Virus genome (UHGV): UHGV-1461890 | Origin: a virus | DNA length: 41,432 nt | Direction: 5' to 3' (one strand) | In this document: positions 24,901-36,045 of the stretch, piece by piece | Layout: each line of letters opens with the position of its first letter | Numbering within the stretch: the first letter of the stretch is position 1 | The notes under the pieces: generated by a model | Seen by the model: the letters and a program-made list of their open reading frames with translations, nothing else | The model's database searches: none | Told to the model about the DNA's origin: nothing | Position numbers and translations under genes: made by a program

Positions 24901-27265
24901 GGTTGAGCAGCTTGGTACTGATACAATGGTCTTCCTAAAATACTTAGGAGAACACAAGCAGTCTAACTCTATTGTGGACTTTGTTACATGGGACAATGCA
25001 CTTCCTTATTACACATTTAAACGCTTCGGTGAAGGCGGCGAATCTGTGTTTGAAGAGCTTATGGATGCTCAGGATAAATTGGCTTATCTTGCTGACGGTA
25101 TCTTCAAGTTTAAAGAAAATACTTGGACCGATAAAGAGGCAAGTGAGTGGAGCAAGGATACCCACACAATCAAATTACCGAGTGGTAGAGAGCTAACCTT
25201 AACCTCAGCCGATGCCATGTCAATTTACTGCCTATCACGAAGAGACCAAGGTAAGCAGCATTTGCTCGGCGGTGGTGTGAGAGTATTAGGTATCGAAAAG
25301 AATGGTAAAAAGGCTAATGACAGTAGGTCTCTGTTAAATCAGCAGGATTTAGTGGCAATAGCTAACTCCTTAACCGAAAGGCAAAAAAAGGTTGCCGAGG
25401 CTATTCAGCGATATATGTCAACCACTTGTGCTGAGTGGGGTAACGAAATCTCTATGAAGCGTTTCCTCACAAAAGAATTTAATGAACAATTCTACTTTCC
25501 TATTGAGTCTAACGATGAAAACCTCGACACAAAGGACCCGAAGGCCCAGCAGAGTGACCTTTATAGATTGCTTAATATTTCTGCTACCAAGCCTTTAACA
25601 AAGGGTGCAAACAACGAGGTTATAATCCGTAATGTGTTTGATGTGTTTGCTAATCATTCATCAGATATGGCTAAACTGAATGCTTTTGGTATGGCTCTCC
25701 TTGATTACATGAAGTGGATTAACTATCGTGTAAAGACTGTTAATGATGACGGACAAATCAGCGTTAGCGGTGTTCGTAAATCAATGGAAAAAGCCTACGG
25801 TTCAGAAGCCAATAAGTATGTGCTAAGTCTCATCAAGGATATAAATGGTCGCTATAACGATAATGGTGACAATAAGTTCCTTATGAAGATGATTCGTGGC
25901 GCTAAGACTGTTATGGTAGGTAATAACCTGAGAGTAGCGTTGTTACAGTTCACAGCATATCCAAGAGCCGCTATGGTACTTTCAAACAAGAGTCTTGCAT
26001 TAGGTCTCACTAAAGTGCCTCAGATTGAAAAAGCAAAGAAATATTGTGGCATTGCTTTGTGGAAATCGTTTGGTTTCTATGATACTAACATTTCTAAAAG
26101 CATAGAGGAGCAAATCAAGGGTGCAACGAACATTAGGCAAAAACTTATTGAGTTATCCTTAAAGGGCGCTGAATGGGGAGATGCAATCACATGGGGTTGC
26201 TTATGGAATGCCTGTGAGTATGAGGTTGCTAAAACCAATAAATACAAGGTTGGCTCCGAAGAGTTTAATCAGGCAGTAGGTAAAAAGCTTCGTGAGGTTG
26301 TATATGCGACTCAGGTTGTAGACTCTACTTTAACAAGGTCGCAGATGATGAGAAGCAAGAGTGGATTAAACCAAACCGCTTCAGCCTTCATGTCAGAGCC
26401 TACACTATCCGCTAATATGCTTATGGATGTTGCCTTCCAATTTAATCTTGAAAAGCGTAGGACAGGCTCAGCAAAGGCTGCTTGGAAAAAGACAAGTAAA
26501 TATGTCGGCAAGGCAGTAGGAGTTTACTGTGTAGTTCAGTTATTTGCTGCATTAGCAGAGAGCCTTATGGATGCTTATAGAGACGATGACGATGAGGAGT
26601 TTAAGAAGAAGTTCGGAGAGGCATTTAAAGAAAATGCTATATCCGACCTTAATCCAATCAACAAAATTCCTATTGTTGCAGATATTTCTGAAATGCTATT
26701 GTCTTTGACAGGTATAGGATACTATTCATCAGACAGTTTATACTCAACCGCTATCGATGAATTTAAAAATGTTTTTGAAACATGGCAAAAGGTTATAAAT
26801 GGTGAGGATGGTAAAACTGTTTATGCCGGTATCTATTCAACCACAAAGCTTTTATCCTACATAACAGGTGTATCAGGAAGCGGCTTAATGCGAGAGGTTG
26901 TTACCCTTTGGAACAACACAGCCGGTGCTGCTGACCCTTATTTGAAGATTAGGACATACGAAACCTCATCCACCGATAAAGGCATAGCAGAGTATCAGTT
27001 TGATAAGGGTGATACTGCCTCAGTTAAAACTACTATATCAAAAATGATTAAGGATAAAGTAAAGTCGGGCAAAACTGAAAAAGAAGCCAAATCTGCTGTA
27101 AGGTCCTCATTCACAAGCACTTATAAACCTGAATATATGGTTGCTGTAAAATCAAAAGATTATGACGAGATGAATCGCATAAGAAAACTCCTTTATGCAA
27201 CAGACTTATATGGCACATTATCCGAGCTTGACGAGACCTTGAAAAAGTGGCGCACAACTGAGTAG
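15917..27265 (+). CDS. Giant polyvalent protein, 3782 aa: hydrophobic Gly-zipper region, zincin metallopeptidase (HELTH), PBECR/MuF-C-like segment, unassigned central module, ART-PolyVal-like ADP-ribosyltransferase domain, long C-terminal region
   Basis: One stop-free 11349-nt frame with an AAGGAGGG RBS. Gly/Ala-rich hydrophobic segment at 17227-17810. HELTH at 19238-19252, preceded by NGFYKNGEIYIDLNAG. KPHDLSPEEVIGIIRAMNNPSHLVF around 19985. LSKEQQEFFKDSKVRDEKGNLKIMYHGT..GTGSYFT..DIRYSERD at 22400-23010. Confidence 0.8.
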   Translation: MGAKDVYEQLKREKQQGNSKAKKVYAQMMQSKIIDEFNSLIKHNSDFYNKTKSRFYDEDDNFIDIYRSDSEDWKNTAVSMSSSAREKSTNIRSLLDEYGSYYDADTVSSMLKTLDEHEKFSTDIVKQAVEQHDYFSEYKDENDYNQKVVIPKNQNEEWASANTEALKTEIGNLETSYKAYSELKSKRNLRSSQLISNYIKSGYTRDEAVKLAAKDKDIIEYDKKLSVYGDMSNAEKSLSEKKQFYNNATRVQEGLSLSGITDPSSKHYDPNYLKYSAKGEAMGDEKNGGFFTPDTQRKNQVAYLRNNPDMLELYEETANDANGASWGTSERILLDQIEYKAAKYMTDEEFLIYNAYLGKGDKESADKYLESIEETLTSRQGAAISEQQDTWLKKQLFSVYAGLDQWEQGIISLGNTEGKYDSPTGVQFASGTIREDLGAIGQGAYDLGVTTGNMLPSILVSYLTSGVGGAVGLGAKAAGTLGKVAGAATLGSSAAGNGYQEMLNLGYDKSQAQAYGTLVGLSEAGLEYVLGGISSLGGTVSGGITDKVVTKLVSNMDKAIAKVAIGAGGKLVGSMVSEFGEEYLQEVLDPVFKNITLNTDEDIRLFSSEALYAGILGALSAGLLEGGSSISGEVATYKAGKDVKNTGQLSNLKKFGTSFSADTVAYKIASQVDENTDAYTIGQLLHEVGADSLSEANIADIVKSLERKNISPEHAQTIAEWLNASVQGEVFNPLQRLALKNPDIAQTFKDVIINQNSTVNQRMQSYTDILQNIANEKEIIKANKSKAKAEKKANKTKTTEETKTTPFVPLSNEAITASKIESLAKELESEGVSPELAQVMAQRKVSESSEGKSVADTENAIENKFETNLDGQTLNTKTGDSVNVSEIASIKDGKMTLKLDNGETVDADDISFGTEDEGLIYSTVLDMGVNAAVANSLVKNYSPSDKLSARQYALGIKEAYKYGSYGMPINEISKNGFAADLSEAQRTHAYNLGKSDRTAKVEKAQKEVQKVVSGKNGIEGKVHFKGDELALKEVQRESLKRMGILSEVLGLNFHVFESYVDKNGKRVYKDTDGKIKKAPNGFYKNGEIYIDLNAGKDGQGIMIYTVAHELTHWIREWSPAKFKVLADFLFEQYGKGNRNVNKLIEDQITNAKNNGRTIDYDTAYEEVVADSMETMLSDDNVLEKIMLLKSKDESIIKKIGEFFEKIINSFKNLMQKYPPETTEGKLVSQMNDAFEELQSLFAEALVDASNNYQANKGQKNTTSEGDVKLQARELQRKDPTTLKEDELTTLLEYTKDKVLSDDTYIPVRINTPQILIAFAKEFGYTLENHPLAMQVYKARQALSNEENWDGDYQDKPHDLSPEEVIGIIRAMNNPSHLVFQTENERFAEIVKFEKEGSKEKAYAIVDFSDVNKNPDLMNGYKGGKYNILVTVYPSEDAADLKRYLSNKNHKVLTGEQMKKKGLSQGSYGGNTPSLLNDSPFFEDSIPQTSKKSQEKLSGRENFIGERNLEDFAEAKDTEGKTLFQYRAMESDEDVYREMLKTANIMSDSEINALFDTVDRAMDIIKDNLEILDYAWETDIDDRAFNPVKKNTDKLYQVSVDFSTLCRKRLLQQAIQAHLQEALNRPLTKNEGIAIRDALMTIQEEGKQIEIACALCYVESARMKSPAQIKRFIDGRETVIKNYFAGKSAEVKAQLKEAEAKARERLGVYDTPLTKLPSKAQKDIRGAKKDVISSYVPSAKEQELIEIAKGMSVNDFVTPKGLETLIKKYPDLFDAYASFIVNATHSKGIENDTWWRAGDSKNIGDTLIANMNAENGLRSQSWSDFQVIHLLDYMAATIELSTRKAKMQTYTKVPDFVELMGSTGEMINLSLIPTRNFNGTLDFDGIEGMEFEESLRLRDKYHATAGTIAIGVDNVQIQMLLDSMNIDYVIPYHRSGMAKAVRKAMHIPTWTEYENYQSEKNLSRDAAREQAKKYGVKLLSESDSNYQKHPNFSDWFDITEARQIAKMENSTPSDKAMAKKYGVMYGGYKAMQNAANNYLRLCAERSISPKFSHENANFTTEANYWKLLIDRKMIDNVTGEVIEQQAVKPIFDQGEVLRILNDELERYPSVKADQDYATRKVTENFLSGNIKGGMSAEAIAKAMKKSVDNIAKVNILASMGDSKLSDRDSEGNTLSKEQQEFFKDSKVRDEKGNLKIMYHGTSKGGHTVFDTYGSNYGLFGTGSYFTDNRDIAESYTKKGKGNNQQVYDTYLNITNPIDMDAQADVSKWEKQFPDADFSNCTTNEECYRAMEEWLEDEMLPKWEAAEIAIDGLQEMGYDGVTHIGGGRVNTDSTRHRVYIAFDSNQIKETTNTNPTSDPDIRYSERDAIESENKILDLESQISEIEEQLSEDIFDEIPDDERKKMNNQLWKLRNELQKLEKAEREATVKTSLSEIRDNLDKYRYIDLRSLAEGLGWEEYADLSKTQLANALRESLNEIEQEWKEDETSDFNSAKDGMWIRPISEEESNKVIKVKFQDRDADTTENIEKINKQLAKENLKLIEDVKYLKELVKLQGKETHGKVLKKSTVELVAKRLMTYVSARGNTSELVGHLTNVYNYIIQGEDVSWEGIQEKAEAAADWLMQNEHHKPVRDDVANEILHYLRTTGISFDSGQKQEAAYRYDSFNNFRKKNMGRLKITNDGLPLDMAWQELASMYPGYFDPEVNSNDQPLVLMDIIDGLQNTYELDDYHYYSDEMIKQDLLMKIYEGYWDVSALHTVADAKQKEINLLKAKHRESMDSLRQTHAEADAKLRQEHKDKISQLRSQYREREEKKVQKVAEYYQKSRKEAVDRVKESREKRDAITKLQRLVLDTAKWVSYPAKDAVKCPDIIKVPYAEFLESIDLSSKRLLSGGEPTQNDLRVASAMDSLAKAIEQKLGTQRPDTDTETVLDTGYLDLPVHFVENLKELAESLKKRMATDGHIVNSMTSTEIRDLTKFIRTLNHSIKEMSTLYANMRFAKVEQLGTDTMVFLKYLGEHKQSNSIVDFVTWDNALPYYTFKRFGEGGESVFEELMDAQDKLAYLADGIFKFKENTWTDKEASEWSKDTHTIKLPSGRELTLTSADAMSIYCLSRRDQGKQHLLGGGVRVLGIEKNGKKANDSRSLLNQQDLVAIANSLTERQKKVAEAIQRYMSTTCAEWGNEISMKRFLTKEFNEQFYFPIESNDENLDTKDPKAQQSDLYRLLNISATKPLTKGANNEVIIRNVFDVFANHSSDMAKLNAFGMALLDYMKWINYRVKTVNDDGQISVSGVRKSMEKAYGSEANKYVLSLIKDINGRYNDNGDNKFLMKMIRGAKTVMVGNNLRVALLQFTAYPRAAMVLSNKSLALGLTKVPQIEKAKKYCGIALWKSFGFYDTNISKSIEEQIKGATNIRQKLIELSLKGAEWGDAITWGCLWNACEYEVAKTNKYKVGSEEFNQAVGKKLREVVYATQVVDSTLTRSQMMRSKSGLNQTASAFMSEPTLSANMLMDVAFQFNLEKRRTGSAKAAWKKTSKYVGKAVGVYCVVQLFAALAESLMDAYRDDDDEEFKKKFGEAFKENAISDLNPINKIPIVADISEMLLSLTGIGYYSSDSLYSTAIDEFKNVFETWQKVINGEDGKTVYAGIYSTTKLLSYITGVSGSGLMREVVTLWNNTAGAADPYLKIRTYETSSTDKGIAEYQFDKGDTASVKTTISKMIKDKVKSGKTEKEAKSAVRSSFTSTYKPEYMVAVKSKDYDEMNRIRKLLYATDLYGTLSELDETLKKWRTTE

Positions 27266-31893: not shown

Positions 31894-31898
31894 AAAAA

Positions 31899-31928
31899 TA
31901 GAGTCTCCTTTGCGGAGGCTCTATTTTA
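31899..31928 (+). terminator. Rho-independent terminator of the late/lysis operon
   Basis: Stem tagagtctcc / ggaggctcta with one G-U pair, loop tttgc, then TTTT. Confidence 0.75.
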
Positions 31929-32110: not shown

Positions 32111-33607
32111 CTAAATATCGTGAAAATAAATAGCTAAATTGCCTTTAGCCTTTTCAAATACAACCTTTTCAATTATTGTGCGTAACGCTTCATTCTTAGC
32201 CCGAGGTGTTACATCTTCCCTTTTTATGAACTCAAGTATGCCTACAACCTTTTCAGAGAAGGCATCTATGTCAATATCCTTAACTATGACCTTATCCCTA
32301 TCCTGCTTTAATTTCTCAATCTTAGTGGTTATTTCAGCCTTATTATTACCATACTGTTCAATGGTATCAATTTCGGCAAGGTAAGCCTCCTTTGCTCTTT
32401 CAAGCCTTCTTTCCTCTAAGGCTATGAGCTTATCATAGTCTATGGTAGGCTTTTCAGTTTGCTTAGGTGCTTTGGGTGTGATGTTAAATTGTTGGCTTCC
32501 TATGGCCTGTTCTAAACCTTTAATAAAGGCGCTTTCTAATTTAATCATACTGATAGAGTGAGATGTGTGACAAGAGCCTCTTGAATAGTTGCAACATTGT
32601 AAGGAGTGTGTTTTTTTCTTTGCAGCAAGATTCCTTGTTCCGTTATAAGCAAGTGTCGCTCCACAAGCACTACATCTAACAAGCCCTTTAAGGATATAAT
32701 CAATAGGTTGCTGCCTCCGAGCATGTTTAGAATACAACAATTTCATAGTTTGCAATCTTTCCTGAACCTTATCCCACAGTTCCATTGATATAAGTGGTTG
32801 CCAATTACCATCAATAATTTGGATGTTTTCATTGAGATAATCCCTTTTACTTACTACCTTTGAACCATCAGGTGTCCATCTGATTTTACCTATATAAGCA
32901 GGATTCCATAAAATATACTCTATCCACCTATTATCAGGTATATTACCTCTTTTGGTACGAACTCCTCTCTGCCCGAGCGAAATTGTAATTTCTCTCATAC
33001 CTTCACCATCAGCAAACCTTTGAAATATTTCTTTGATAACATCGGCAGCACCGCTTTCTACATCGGGAAGATAGGTTTTATCACCATTTATGTATCCAAA
33101 AGGAGCAAATACAGCAGGCTCTCCTCTGCTTACCTTTTCTTCCATGCCTCTTGATACTTCAGCGCCGAGGTTGATAAGGTAAAATTCATCCATCCATTCT
33201 ATAATTCTCTCCATGAGGCTTCCAAAAGGACCTTCAGGTATAGGCTCTGATACAGATTTAACCGATATGCCTATCTTTTGAAGCAAGTTTTTATATACTA
33301 TACTTTGCTCTTGGTTTCTTGCAAAACGAGATAACTTCCACACATATATAATATCAAAGGGATGATTTTTCTCCTTTGCCATGGCTATCATCAAGTTAAA
33401 GTTATCTCTTTTCTTTACGCTCTTTCCTGAGATACCATCATCATAAAATACATACTCATCAGGGATTAAATAACCTTCCCTTGCTGCAAATTCTCTGATT
33501 TTTTTGAGCTGAGAATCAGGACTGTATTCATCTTGCCTTTCATCCGATACACGAACATAGGCAGCTCCTATTTTTAATAATTCGTTTTCCACTTTATCAC
33601 TCCTCAT
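32111..33607 (-). CDS. int: Large serine recombinase (phage integrase)
   Basis: N-terminal resolvase motif GAAYVRVSDERQ..SPDSQ, a recombinase domain, a Cys-rich zinc ribbon (CSACGATL..CCNYSRGSC) and a C-terminal coiled coil. A GTG at 33592, preceded by GAGGAG, is an alternative start. Confidence 0.9.
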   Translation of the reverse strand: MRSDKVENELLKIGAAYVRVSDERQDEYSPDSQLKKIREFAAREGYLIPDEYVFYDDGISGKSVKKRDNFNLMIAMAKEKNHPFDIIYVWKLSRFARNQEQSIVYKNLLQKIGISVKSVSEPIPEGPFGSLMERIIEWMDEFYLINLGAEVSRGMEEKVSRGEPAVFAPFGYINGDKTYLPDVESGAADVIKEIFQRFADGEGMREITISLGQRGVRTKRGNIPDNRWIEYILWNPAYIGKIRWTPDGSKVVSKRDYLNENIQIIDGNWQPLISMELWDKVQERLQTMKLLYSKHARRQQPIDYILKGLVRCSACGATLAYNGTRNLAAKKKTHSLQCCNYSRGSCHTSHSISMIKLESAFIKGLEQAIGSQQFNITPKAPKQTEKPTIDYDKLIALEERRLERAKEAYLAEIDTIEQYGNNKAEITTKIEKLKQDRDKVIVKDIDIDAFSEKVVGILEFIKREDVTPRAKNEALRTIIEKVVFEKAKGNLAIYFHDI

Positions 33608-33839
33608 CTATTTCATCTTCAAAATCTTCAGCACAATATTCACATACTGTTCTACCATCTTTTAAGTGAAAAAACTCAACATAGTCATAAGACCAATACT
33701 CGTTACATTCCTCGCATAAAAAATAGTTTTCATCTAAGCATTTCTTACACAGGTGATTTTTCTCGTCAGCAATAACCAAATCACAGTTTTCAGTTCCACA
33801 CTCAGTACAAGTGCCGGTATATTCTCTTGAAGTGTTCAT
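33597..33839 (-). CDS. 80-aa zinc-ribbon protein (4x CxxC) with an acidic tail
   Basis: CTEC, CKKC, CEEC and CEYC pairs. C-terminal EDFEDEIDEE. Its 3' end overlaps or abuts the integrase start. Confidence 0.6.
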   Translation of the reverse strand: MNTSREYTGTCTECGTENCDLVIADEKNHLCKKCLDENYFLCEECNEYWSYDYVEFFHLKDGRTVCEYCAEDFEDEIDEE

Positions 33840-33854
33840 AGTTCACCTGCTTTC

Positions 33855-34430
33855 TTAATCGTCTTTTATAAAGTGATTAAAAACTAAGTAAAAAAATAAT
33901 ATTACTATTCCTACTAAAAAGAAAATTTTTGTTAATATTCCTGAGTAAGAATCCATAACGATATTTCCTATTACATCAATCCACAATAACAACAAAAAAT
34001 ATCCAACAACTTTTAATAAATCTTTATTTTGCAATATTTTTTTTAAAACACTTGTTATTTTATCTTTTATACAAAAATTTGTAATCTTACTTTCGCCATA
34101 TAACACTCGGCGGTGAATCTTTTGAAAAAGCTTAGATTGCTCCATTTCTTCTAATTTTACTTCTAACTGTTTAATCTCTTTATCTAAAGCAGAATCTAAA
34201 GCAACTCTACTTTTTACAATATCAATTGTTTTTTGAGAATGTTGTGTATAGCTAATATTGCGAAAAAGACCAGTATATTCTCTTTTTTTATACTCTGCAT
34301 TTAAAAGTTCGTGATATACATCCTGATATTTTTTATAAGCAGCCTTTTCGTTATCATTTTTTAAATAGTCTTCAACATTAGTAAAACGAAAAAATTCTTG
34401 TATATCATCGATGTCAATTCTTTCACTCAT
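33855..34430 (-). CDS. 191-aa protein with a coiled-coil N-terminal part and two C-terminal transmembrane helices (moron; exclusion or abortive-infection candidate)
   Basis: AGGGGA RBS. Hydrophobic segments VVGYFLLLLWIDVIGNIV and IFFLVGIVILFFYLVF. Very low GC by hand count: 15/60 at 33901-33960 and 13/60 at 33961-34020. Confidence 0.6.
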   Translation of the reverse strand: MSERIDIDDIQEFFRFTNVEDYLKNDNEKAAYKKYQDVYHELLNAEYKKREYTGLFRNISYTQHSQKTIDIVKSRVALDSALDKEIKQLEVKLEEMEQSKLFQKIHRRVLYGESKITNFCIKDKITSVLKKILQNKDLLKVVGYFLLLLWIDVIGNIVMDSYSGILTKIFFLVGIVILFFYLVFNHFIKDD

Positions 34431-34440
34431 AATAATTCCC

Positions 34441-34866
34441 CTAATCGTTTTTCTTCATGTAATAGTTATGCAAAGATATAATCTCTTCTTTATGGTCGAG
34501 TTTTAACCGTAATATGTCATTTTCGGATGTTAGCACTCCAACTTTGTCCTTAAGCATGACATTCTCAGCGGTTAAAAGTACAAGTTCGCTGCTGAGCCTT
34601 TCAACTTCAGCAGTAAGTTTGTCAACTTCTTCGTGCAGCATAGTGTAATTTTTACTGCCGATAACCACATTACTCTCGGCAAATAATTCGCCCATAGATA
34701 TGCCAAGAACGTCTGCAATTCGGTGAAGAGTAATAGCTTGTGGAGAGGGCGTTTCACCTGAAAAGATACGAGATACGGTCCTTTCGGGGAATTTTGACTC
34801 TTGAGCGATATATTTATAAGTATAACCAAGTTCTTTTCGTCTTTCTCTTATAATGTCAAGCCACAT
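34441..34866 (-). CDS. XRE-family HTH regulator with a C-terminal leucine-zipper-like coiled coil
   Basis: N-terminal GYTYKYIAQESKFPERTVSRIFSGETPSPQAITLHRIADVLGISMGELF HTH. C-terminal heptads VDKLTAEVERLSSELVLLTAENVMLKDKVGVL. Confidence 0.75.
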   Translation of the reverse strand: MWLDIIRERRKELGYTYKYIAQESKFPERTVSRIFSGETPSPQAITLHRIADVLGISMGELFAESNVVIGSKNYTMLHEEVDKLTAEVERLSSELVLLTAENVMLKDKVGVLTSENDILRLKLDHKEEIISLHNYYMKKND

Positions 34867-34977
34867 ATTGATGTCCTTTCAGTAGTCAAATTTGGGTATG
34901 GATTAGTCAAAAATGGACATTGAAAATCAGCTTAAAATATTTTACAATTTGCCCAACAAAAAACCAATCAGAATAAA

Positions 34978-35007
34978 TTGACAATTTCGACAAATAAATG
35001 TTAAAAT
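34978..35007 (+). promoter_or_regulatory. Orphan sigma-70-like promoter pointing into the 3' end of the repressor gene
   Basis: TTGACA at 34978-34983, an 18-nt spacer and an extended -10 TGtTAAAAT at 34999-35007. Shares the ttgaca(a)tttcgacaaa core with the cro-side promoter at 35736. Confidence 0.5.
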
Positions 35008-35121
35008 AAATTAAGAACATTTGTTCGAAAAGTCCGTTTTTTTGTACATTGATTTTTGTATTATTAAATTATAACCGAAATATTCACCTTATTTATATGT
35101 TTTTCGGAAGGGGTATCATCA

Positions 35122-35298
35122 ATGTCAAACAATCTTATAGAACTTCTAAGTATTATTCTTGAAAGCGGTAACCCGGAACAAGCAGTTCATACCGTAGCCA
35201 ATGTTATTTTTGGTCATTCATCTCAGCACGAATCGCACCGAGAAGAAATCTCTGTGTGTCAGGAGACATTTTGTCAAACGAAAGTGCCACCTCGATAA
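35122..35298 (+). CDS. Candidate 58-aa ORF below the track cutoff, convergent with and overlapping the repressor 3' end
   Basis: ATG at 35122 follows GGAAGGGG (35107-35114). Translates to MSNNLIELLSIILESGNPEQAVHTVANVIFGHSSQHESHREEISVCQETFCQTKVPPR. Its last 95 nt are antisense to CDS 35204-35620. Confidence 0.25.
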   Translation: MSNNLIELLSIILESGNPEQAVHTVANVIFGHSSQHESHREEISVCQETFCQTKVPPR

Positions 35299-35620
35299 GA
35301 AGTTTTTTCGCATCGTCAGAAAGTAGACGGTATAATTCTAACCATTTCCTCTCACCCTCGGTAAGCTCCTGCTTGTCGGGGGATTGTGTTTCTTTCTCCA
35401 TTGGAACATCATATCCCATTAACCATGCCTCGCTGACATCTAAGGCGTTTGCAATAAGAAATATCCTGTCCTGCTTAGGCTCAAACGCACCACTTATATA
35501 TTGACTTATAGCGCTTTTAGGTATTCCTGTAAGAGTACAAAGGTCAGATTGTTTCATATTTCTTATGGATAATGCCCTTGATATTCTTTTAGCACAGGTC
35601 TCTTTTCCGTTACTCATCAT
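35204..35620 (-). CDS. CI-type phage repressor (XRE HTH)
   Basis: HTH LSIRNMKQSDLCTLTGIPKSAISQYISGAFEPKQDRIFLIANALDVSEAWLMGYD. The ATG at 35620 follows AGAGG; the listed start at 35626 is a GTG inside the RBS. Divergent from the cro-like gene. Confidence 0.8.
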   Translation of the reverse strand: MMSNGKETCAKRISRALSIRNMKQSDLCTLTGIPKSAISQYISGAFEPKQDRIFLIANALDVSEAWLMGYDVPMEKETQSPDKQELTEGERKWLELYRLLSDDAKKLLIEVALSFDKMSPDTQRFLLGAIRAEMNDQK

Positions 35621-35647
35621 TTTCACCTCTTCAATATATTACCATAT

Positions 35648-35783
35648 AAGTTCAGAAAAATCAATACAAAGTTTAGAAAATTGGGGTTTTCAACCGAGAC
35701 AAAATAAAAAAGTTCAGAAAAATTGAAAAAAATACTTGACATTTCGACAAAAAACCGTTAAGATAAGTTCAGAAAATCTGAAC
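35648..35783. promoter_or_regulatory. Four operator-like repeats (AAGTTyAGAAAA) in the divergent switch region
   Basis: Copies at 35648-35662, 35669-35683, 35710-35725 and 35765-35783. The last contains the perfect 17-bp palindrome GTTCAGAAAATCTGAAC at 35767-35783. Confidence 0.55.
35736..35764 (+). promoter_or_regulatory. Early lytic promoter: TTGACA-N17-TAAGAT
   Basis: -35 at 35736-35741 and -10 at 35759-35764. The palindromic operator starts 3 nt downstream of the -10. Confidence 0.6.
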
Positions 35784-35799
35784 GAGGGAGGTGAAAATA

Positions 35800-36045
35800 A
35801 TGAAAATGAGCGATACAAACGTTAAATTTGATTACTCCAAACTTCTTGGAAAAATCAAAGAAAAAGGCTATATACAAAGTGATATTGCTAAGAAAGTTGG
35901 CATAGGTAAGACAACTTTTAACGAGGTCCTTTCGGGCAAAACTTTTTTAAGGCAGCCAACAATTATTAAGATTTGTGATGTGTTGGAAATAGCATATAAG
36001 GATATACCCTTATATTTTTTTACCCAAAGGGTTCAGGAAAACTAA
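35800..36045 (+). CDS. Cro-like XRE HTH regulator
   Basis: The ATG at 35800 lies 8 nt after GGGAGG (the listed start is a GTG at 35791). HTH GYIQSDIAKKVGIGKTTFNEVLSGK. First gene of the rightward early operon. Confidence 0.75.
   Translation: MKMSDTNVKFDYSKLLGKIKEKGYIQSDIAKKVGIGKTTFNEVLSGKTFLRQPTIIKICDVLEIAYKDIPLYFFTQRVQEN

Follow-up and report, generated by a model that had tools for sequence, protein, structure and literature searches.

RexA/RexB of phage lambda and other prophage abortive-infection (Abi) modules are co-transcribed with the immunity region, and RexB, which has four transmembrane (TM) helices, needs RexA. In lactococcal phages, genes located between the integrase and the repressor confer superinfection exclusion (Sie) (PMC7693887), and a two-component form of Sie, consisting of a membrane protein and a protein with a zinc motif, is encoded next to a serine integrase, SieF7/2AB being orf2/orf3 of TP901-1 (PMC7693887). 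The lipoprotein Ltp of phage TP-J34 is encoded in the lysogeny module as well (PMC3952083). Accessory membrane genes between repressor and integrase are well known in phages of lactic acid bacteria; the host group of the phage treated here, gut Clostridia, is unexplored for such loci. The present analysis concerns the virus genome UHGV-1461890 (41,432 nucleotides; the whole stretch is called the window below), in which three genes, encoding an XRE-type regulator with a leucine zipper (XRE-zipper), a protein with two TM segments (2-TM protein) and a zinc protein, precede the gene of a large serine integrase (int). To the reading of the whole as an autoregulated int operon with a moron slot in its middle, similar to the Sie and Ltp loci, we give an even chance.

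The window represents a temperate phage of about 41 kb, with a large terminase, a P22-like portal, a BppU-type baseplate protein and a lysin; a search for DNA similarity to cultured phages found none, and its hosts are gut Clostridia (one of the related loci discussed below, L022, is an Oscillospiraceae metagenome-assembled genome). The CI-like repressor gene (35204-35626, minus strand) faces a DUF739 Cro-like gene (35791-36045, plus strand) and is followed, all on the minus strand, by the genes of the XRE-zipper regulator (34441-34866; 141 amino acids (aa)), the 2-TM protein (33855-34430; 191 aa; cargo gene 1), the zinc protein (33597-33839; 80 aa; cargo gene 2) and, as the last gene of the operon, int (32111-33607 as called; 498 aa), the lengths being those of the list of open reading frames (ORFs). 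The spacers measure 10 nt between the regulator and 2-TM genes and 15 nt between the 2-TM and zinc genes, and the int ORF, if started at its ATG, shares 11 nt with the ORF of the zinc protein. An earlier note on this DNA had described these three same-strand genes, their spacers and the overlap with int, and the ORF list agrees with it exactly. Its assumption that they are co-transcribed with int is likewise consistent with the terminator scan, in which no terminator-like hairpin was found on the minus strand within 33597-34866. The first such site met on that strand lies past int: a bidirectional hairpin at 31895-31927, between the lysin gene and int, with a 14-bp stem and A and T runs on either side, which is likely the 3' end of the int operon.

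The integrase is a large serine recombinase according to its Pfam matches (Resolvase, 5.5e-26; Recombinase, 5.2e-17; Zn_ribbon_recom, 9.2e-8) and to its match to the integrase family phrog_95 of PHROGs (5e-99). The ratio of nonsynonymous to synonymous substitution rates (dN/dS) of the three genes preceding it ranges from 0.05 to 0.33 overall, with 0.09-0.17 for the regulator gene, 0.25-0.33 for the 2-TM gene and 0.05-0.07 for the zinc gene, compared with 0.07-0.15 for int; the constraint on the zinc gene is thus stronger than that on int. Judged by these values, by the homologues in other phages and by the presence of a 191-codon ORF in DNA with a GC content of 24.8%, all three evolve as coding genes and are real genes rather than chance ORFs.

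The slot between regulator and integrase

About 40 related loci, gathered through the three proteins and cited here by their L numbers, were compared. They were annotated by ORF calling, BLAST to reference proteins, hydropathy and Pfam/PADLOC, and scans of Pfam, PHROGs, PADLOC and NCBIfam took in the three proteins and at least 20 neighbouring or cargo proteins; in these scans no cargo protein had a family match. The minimal layout among the relatives consists of CI, a small convergent gene, the XRE-zipper gene and int. The XRE gene stands directly before int in six loci (L017, L019, L020, L027, L030 and L036), with gaps of 20-119 nt, so that the XRE-to-int interval is empty. A filled interval holds one or two genes, which vary between phages, and about nine cargo types are found behind the XRE-zipper gene, eight of which include a predicted membrane protein, often together with a small, very acidic protein. 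These types are the 2-TM protein with the zinc protein (window), the 2-TM protein alone (L064/65), an acidic protein of 113 or 111 aa with a 4-TM protein of 281 or 297 aa (L015, L028), proteins of 122 aa and 219 aa with two TM segments each, of 114 aa with three, of 180 aa with four, and of 658 aa and 366 aa with one each, and one pair devoid of TM segments. The slot of loci that were reached via the zinc protein contains lipoproteins with the lipobox LSAC (L013, L021), a tail-anchored protein of 249 aa (L007) or a 4-TM protein sharing 72% identity with the C-terminus of the 281-aa protein of L015 (L022). Compared across these loci, the XRE-to-int interval is a hypervariable, recombination-prone cargo slot.

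The genes of the window are combined in different ways in the relatives. The regulator occurs together with both the 2-TM and the zinc gene in the window, with the 2-TM gene and without the zinc gene in L064/65, and without the 2-TM gene in L015, L017, L019, L020 and L025-L037. The 2-TM and zinc genes are found together without the XRE gene in L005/6, L061/62 and L063; in L001-4 the 2-TM gene is accompanied by a different protein with a helix-turn-helix (HTH), a coiled coil and a TM segment and by a tyrosine integrase, and the zinc gene is missing; in L007, L013 and L021 the zinc gene occurs with another membrane protein. The only constant companions of the 2-TM gene are CI and an integrase. 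By this pattern, the 2-TM and zinc genes are independently assorting cargo genes and not one defence system, and an obligate pairing of the toxin-antitoxin (TA) type (the earlier note had named TA-like modules among several kinds) is excluded by 2-TM genes without the XRE gene (L005/6, L063) and by the many loci with the XRE gene and without the 2-TM gene.

The int-proximal edge of the slot has a characteristic sequence. The zinc-gene/int junction of the window reads GATGAGGAGTGATAAAGTG. The called ATG of int (33607) falls within the zinc-protein gene, and an alternative GTG at 33592, 4 nt past the stop of the zinc gene, is preceded by the Shine-Dalgarno (SD) motif GAGGAG, which sits in the final codons of that gene. 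The GTG is the likelier true start of int, because the integrases of L007 and L017 begin at the equivalent codon. Whichever start holds, the zinc gene and int are translationally coupled. In L064 (1590-1650), the 2-TM gene abuts int via the same GATGAGGAGTGA junction, comprising DEE-stop and the SD motif, with which the zinc gene of the window ends; this suggests that GATGAGGAGTGA is a conserved boundary of recombination and ribosome binding at the int-proximal slot edge.

The order of the proposed int operon would be promoter and operators, XRE-zipper regulator, cargo and integrase. The GC content is 38.5% for the XRE gene, 34.6% for the zinc gene and 37.3% for int, compared with 38.5% for the window; the value of the 2-TM gene, 24.8%, is strongly deviant and, as far as composition can tell, is the signature of an acquired moron.

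The regulator and its leader

Residues 6-61 of the regulator match HTH_3 (PF01381) with 40.8 bits against a cut-off of 23 (E=2.3e-10). In residues 77-119, leucine occupies every seventh position of seven consecutive heptads, with valine, asparagine or leucine at the a-positions, and judged by this periodicity the segment is a classic dimeric leucine zipper. The family has at least 655 relatives, in which the tail LKLEHKEEIIS-LHNYY is nearly invariant. Searches with the regulator yielded weak matches to HTH domains only among PDB sequence profiles (E about 0.002), generic HTH models only in PADLOC-DB v2, and, in tblastn against phages, only HTH matches of 35% identity in Clostridium tetani phages. 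It is the second XRE gene of the window, besides the CI/Cro switch (35204-36045).

The earlier note had placed this regulator at the head of a cassette of its own. That view had to be given up, because the gene directly precedes int, without any cargo, in the six minimal relatives; from its position in the compared loci, the XRE-zipper gene is the conserved resident regulator of the locus and the first gene of the int operon, and not cargo. A restriction of the family to serine integrases was also considered and rejected, since it is found with integrases of both classes, the tyrosine integrases being those of L032 and L033.

In three loci (L001, 5298-5816; L041, 1818-2306; L043, 24-491), the gene at the position of the XRE-zipper gene encodes an HTH, a coiled coil and a C-terminal TM anchor, i.e. 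a membrane-tethered XRE-like regulator. The regulator of the window is soluble, but the product of the next gene is a membrane protein whose coiled coil is cytoplasmic.

The leader of the XRE gene contains two 20-nt direct repeats, 21 nt apart (34883-34902 and 34904-34923; TAGTCAAATTTGG..), each with the palindrome CAAATTTG. Similar repeats, CAATACCCAAnTTTGAC-like and present in two or three copies at a spacing of about 21 nt, were found in the leader of the XRE-zipper gene in all 21 loci examined, the third copy being inverted in some of them, and they are positioned between the putative promoter and the SD motif (leaders including those of L015, L017, L019 and L024-L040). No enrichment of the operator-like motif CCAAATTTGAC or of the element TTGTCGAAAT.GTCAA was detected elsewhere in the window. 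The repeats at 34883-34923 are candidate autoregulatory operators of the dimeric XRE-zipper protein, which would bind to the paired repeats in its own leader and thereby keep expression of the operon, int and cargo included, low and steady in the lysogen.

The hexamer TAAAAT at 34939-34944 (minus strand), which lies within a block conserved in the relatives (GGAAATTGTAAnATATT) and is accompanied by a poor -35 element (TTGGTT), is likely the -10 element of the operon promoter. Transcription of the operon by read-through from the CI promoter was considered as well and is unlikely, as a convergent promoter with a LexA-type box and a small gene intervene.

It should be noted that L005 (5456-6000) and L063 (420-911) contain 490-545 nt of non-coding DNA in place of the XRE-zipper gene, with two repeat arrays of about four copies of TCAAGTTTGC and four to five copies of GGTGATAAAATTCGG, and that a TCAAGTTTGC array is also located upstream of the HTH-coiled-coil-TM gene of L001.

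The cargo proteins and the rival readings

The product classes given in the earlier note (an HTH regulator, a protein with two hydrophobic helices and a zinc ribbon) were confirmed by the HTH_3 match, the hydrophobic segments and the four CxxC pairs, and its statement that none of the products matched a known family holds for the latter two, for which searches of Pfam, PHROGs, PADLOC, NCBIfam and PDB gave no significant match. The 2-TM protein has no signal peptide; a helical N-terminal region of about 135 aa is followed by hydrophobic segments at about 137-160 and 160-190, and its AlphaFold2 (AF2) model is all-helical (pLDDT 75), with helices at 136-160 and 165-188. The predicted topology is a C-terminal two-helix membrane hairpin with a helical or coiled-coil N-domain of about 135 aa in the cytoplasm. 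Besides the protein of the window, a search of 5.8 billion proteins revealed eight homologues, and the motif MEQSKLFQ.IH is invariant in nine homologues; the family was not found in IMG/VR. Searches against Pfam, PHROGs, NCBIfam, PDB sequences and the folds of BFVD gave nothing beyond sub-threshold noise, and PADLOC-DB v2 gave one spurious SspC match of 16.8 bits.

The gene shares with the Sie2009 and Ltp type its location between repressor and integrase in the lysogeny module, and its product is, by prediction, a small membrane-associated protein; homology to a characterised Sie protein was not found in PHROG, Pfam, NCBIfam, PDB sequences or BFVD. By analogy, superinfection exclusion and abortive infection are the candidate functions of this predicted membrane protein. 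Most likely it works on its own, is expressed from the prophage and is directed against superinfecting phages, a reading that is based on the position, which resembles that of sie2009, ltp and TP901-1 orf2/3, on the turnover of the slot, on the predominance of membrane and surface proteins in it and on the AT-rich composition. The AT-rich gene would then be a moron that the prophage expresses, and the coiled-coil domain of its product, cytoplasmic but anchored in the membrane, would act there against superinfecting phages without a partner, like Sie2009, and would either keep their DNA out or damage the membrane in an abortive response. With most of the protein predicted in the cytoplasm, an Abi-like sensor-effector is a slightly better match to the topology than a surface block of the Ltp kind.

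The zinc protein has four CxxC pairs, and among 12 homologues C11, C14, C42, C45, C66 and C69 are invariant and C31 and C34 nearly so; the pairs form two adjacent C4 sites (C11/C14/C31/C34 and C42/C45/C66/C69), as in LIM and tandem treble-clef proteins. The protein has an isoelectric point (pI) of 4.1, a net charge of -17 and an acidic tail, and five members of the family carry net charges of -17 to -23 over about 80 aa. The AF2 model (pLDDT 85) shows two beta-hairpin-plus-helix units, for which the best Foldseek matches were generic LIM, FYVE and treble-clef fingers, with LIM on top and with non-significant scores. Nothing beyond sub-threshold noise was found in Pfam, PHROGs and NCBIfam, no match in PADLOC-DB v2, only chance RING or zinc-finger matches among PDB sequence profiles, and no tblastn match in cultured phages. 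Eleven close members were found in 5.8 billion proteins, and an exhaustive profile search located the zinc module in 424 representative clusters. Many of these proteins are stand-alone and of 70-100 aa, and many others have 400-750 aa and three to seven copies of the module. The multi-copy proteins are recurrently fused to Amidoligase_2 (PF12224), which hints that the zinc unit serves as a recognition or substrate module for peptide-ligase-type enzymes of mobile elements. Examples of such fused arrays are P0193, P0200, P0206, P0261 and others; in the IMG/VR contig L014 (3546-5267), a CxxC...CxxC unit is fused to an unassigned N-domain of 400 aa.

The genomic neighbours of the zinc family are DNA-acting enzymes of several kinds. 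A serine integrase gene follows directly behind the zinc gene in the window, L005, L007, L041, L061 and L063 (in L042 after about 400 nt), and a tyrosine integrase gene does so in L013, L021, L046 and L053 (Phage_integrase matches of 2.5e-18 in L046 and 2.8e-21 in L053). More distant relatives, of 45-55% identity, are sited away from integrases. L011 contains an operon of an HTH gene, the zinc protein, a Type III methyltransferase (MTase; PADLOC, 1e-168) and a Type III restriction endonuclease (REase); zinc relatives lie upstream of a PD-T4-3 GIY-YIG defence gene in L012 (4e-28), upstream of a REase_MTES/DUF2726 protein in L050 and downstream of a PIF1 helicase in L048, and an orphan relative stands beside an IS200-like remnant in L023. 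In the proposed explanation, the acidic tandem zinc-finger protein would be a separate accessory binding protein, the partner of which would most plausibly be a DNA-acting enzyme.

Several observations weigh against the reading of the locus as an autoregulated int operon with Sie-like cargo. Leader repeats similar to those of the window are kept in L005 and L063, which lack the XRE gene, and therefore the repeats could bind another factor or act as RNA; given the inverted third copy in some loci, an RNA leader structure may be formed at the CAATACCCAAnTTTGAC-like repeats instead of, or besides, protein operators. The operon promoter is weak by consensus and was missed by the promoter scan (threshold 9/12). 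No sequence or fold similarity to Sie2009, Ltp, SieA, RexB, Abi proteins or PADLOC models was found, and the 2-TM protein is almost wholly cytoplasmic, unlike the surface-exposed Ltp, so that it is not an obvious candidate for blocking DNA injection at the outer face. In addition, the zinc gene may stand next to int for no other reason than that the 3' edge of the cargo slot lies there.

The rival reading that retains most weight, though it is unlikely, sees the locus as a device of integration control and not of defence: the XRE-zipper protein would set the expression of int, and the zinc protein would be an int cofactor, a directionality factor or a translational-coupling leader. It is retained mainly because of the fixed place of the zinc gene, which is the last gene before int in at least ten distinct loci, overlaps or abuts int and supplies the SD motif of int with its final codons; the gene is also more constrained than int, and the regulator gene directly precedes int in the minimal loci. 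However, integrases of both classes, which share neither a mechanism nor a type of recombination directionality factor (RDF), are preceded by members of the zinc family, the family is absent from many relatives with a serine integrase (L015, L017, L064), relatives without an integrase nearby occur in a Type III restriction-modification (R-M) operon and beside PD-T4-3, the PIF1 helicase and the REase-like protein, and a pI of 4.1 speaks against Xis-like DNA binding. The narrower proposal of an RDF of serine integrases was rejected on account of the family members that precede tyrosine integrases, and on account of the absence of the family from many serine-integrase relatives.

Quite unlikely is a second alternative, in which the zinc protein is an anti-defence inhibitor of host restriction enzymes or nucleases, similar to DNA mimics, that would be made together with int while lysogeny is set up and would act in defence operons as a brake on the adjacent nuclease. 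The net charge throughout the family is that of an acidic mimic, and the neighbours (integrases, Type III R-M, the PD-T4-3 GIY-YIG nuclease, the REase_MTES/DUF2726 protein and the PIF1 helicase) would suit such a role, but the zinc protein has no structural similarity to Ocr, ArdA or other mimics, its best, non-significant fold matches being the generic fingers mentioned above. The function of the zinc protein is the least certain of all, and its description as a protein-binding, possibly DNA-mimicking, brake or adaptor, for which the extreme acidity, the tandem fingers of a protein-interaction type, the strong constraint and the DNA-acting neighbours were taken into account, is doubtful. More doubtful still is the extension that the 80-aa protein is the founding example of a widespread hyper-acidic zinc-ribbon family that serves as a portable DNA-mimic-like brake or adaptor for mobile-element enzymes, namely integrases of both classes, Type III R-M, PD-T4-3 and REase-like proteins, and that it may form a two-component exclusion system with the membrane protein.

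The view of the three genes as one cassette, favoured in the earlier note, has not survived as a whole: their tight linkage to int on the lysogeny strand stands, but each gene assorts independently. In its explicit form, an XRE-regulated defence or TA-like cassette in which a toxic membrane effector is kept in check by the regulator or the zinc protein and set free upon infection, it is very unlikely. The three genes are adjacent and co-oriented, and HTH-coiled-coil, membrane and zinc or acidic genes recur jointly in the diverged phages L013, L021, L022, L044, L015 and L028. Nevertheless, an obligate antitoxin or regulator would need a constant partner, and none exists, as the 2-TM gene is found without XRE (L005, L063) and without zinc (L001, L064) and XRE alone before int in six loci; moreover, the PADLOC matches are to generic HTH models only. 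The broader suggestion of an exclusion or defence function remains a candidate, which is favoured by the position, the variability of the slot, the predominance of membrane proteins, the moron-like GC content and the zinc relatives that abut defence genes, and is disfavoured by the lack of a PADLOC match.

Finally, a role of the 2-TM protein as a modulator of lysis/lysogeny or of host physiology, i.e. as an antiholin-like or FtsH/cIII-like membrane regulator, would be compatible with a membrane hairpin bearing a large cytoplasmic helical domain and with a gene within the lysogeny module, but is improbable, as many close relatives that share the lysis and lysogeny genes do without the gene, and as it deviates strongly in GC content and is replaced in the slot by unrelated membrane proteins and lipoproteins, as is seen for conflict genes and not for core regulators.

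Neighbouring genes and described systems

A small gene of 58 aa (35122-35298, plus strand; SD motif GGAAGGGG) runs convergently to CI, the two genes sharing about 95 nt at the 3' end of CI. The promoter of the small gene, TTGACA-18-TAAAAT (34978-35007, plus strand), scored 11/12 for sigma-70 in the promoter scan, and a LexA-type box, CGAACAAATGTTCT (35014-35027), is located right after the -10 element. The consensus of the Gram-positive LexA (Cheo) box is GAAC-N4-GTTC. CGAACAAATGTTCT fits it and is kept at this place in six of seven aligned loci, L015 having a one-base variant (AAAC for GAAC); with the strict pattern, the box was found in 9 of the 21 XRE-zipper loci. The family of the small protein is conserved in at least six loci, and its N-terminal half, M.TN..ELL.LI.EN.NPEQA, which lies outside the CI overlap, is conserved in L001, L005, L015, L017 and L019; no match to Pfam, PHROG or NCBIfam models was found. 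Because of the LexA-type box and because an S24 peptidase domain was not found in CI with Pfam, the small gene probably encodes an SOS-derepressed antirepressor, perhaps aided by antisense transcription into cI, and would thus represent the induction route. SOS-derepressed small antirepressors have been described in the Gifsy phages (PMC3121763).

A block of 45 nt is common to the small-gene promoter (34984-35028) and to the Cro promoter PR (35741-35785), with 78% identity; it contains the -35 element TTGACA followed by TTTCGACAAA...GTTAAAAT/GTTAAGAT, and the palindromes downstream differ, one being the LexA-type box and the other GTTCAGAAAATCTGAAC. This arrangement looks like a promoter duplication with an operator swap. 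A further feature of the window is an ORF of 3782 aa (15917-27265, plus strand), which makes up 27% of the genome and contains an ART-PolyVal ADP-ribosyltransferase domain (residues 2188-2354, E=1.8e-21); additional Pfam domains were not detected in it. As indicated by this domain, it is a polyvalent protein, a kind that has been proposed to be delivered with the phage DNA against host defences.

The XRE-to-int interval offers a defined slot for mining new prophage exclusion or defence genes in a large group of uncultured temperate phages of gut Clostridia, hosts for which almost none are known, and the analysis also flags a strongly constrained hyper-acidic zinc-ribbon family that accompanies integrases and known defence nucleases. 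Should neither cargo protein have a phenotype, the locus would be a further case of lysogeny-module morons.

The proteins of this locus are new families. The regulator resembles HTH regulators of the XRE/Cro-CI type (CI-type proteins of phages, SinR/SlrR) in its HTH_3 domain, its C-terminal dimerising helix and its probable operator pair, whereas the zipper of seven heptads and the invariant tail HKEE..HNYY set it apart as a distinct subfamily of about 142 aa. The zinc protein shares two consecutive C4 sites within about 70 aa with LIM and treble-clef tandem fingers, and its extreme negative charge with the DNA mimics Ocr and ArdA. Like RexA/RexB, the locus is situated on the lysogeny strand, would be expressed from the prophage and encodes a membrane and a cytoplasmic component, but there is no homology, and the components of the window are not constantly paired. 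Neither sequence nor profile searches link the window cargo to Sie2009 of Tuc2009, Ltp or SieF7/2AB; the anchor of Sie2009 is N-terminal and Ltp is exposed at the surface, whereas the 2-TM protein is predicted to have a C-terminal hairpin and a cytoplasmic bulk, and the zinc protein of SieF7/2 has a metalloprotease-type motif, in contrast to the four CxxC pairs found here. What the window cargo has in common with these systems is that they consist of small membrane-associated or lipid-anchored proteins, that their presence varies between related phages, that one of them likewise combines a membrane protein and a zinc-motif protein beside a serine integrase, and that they are encoded on the lysogeny strand between repressor and integrase in temperate siphoviruses of Firmicutes.

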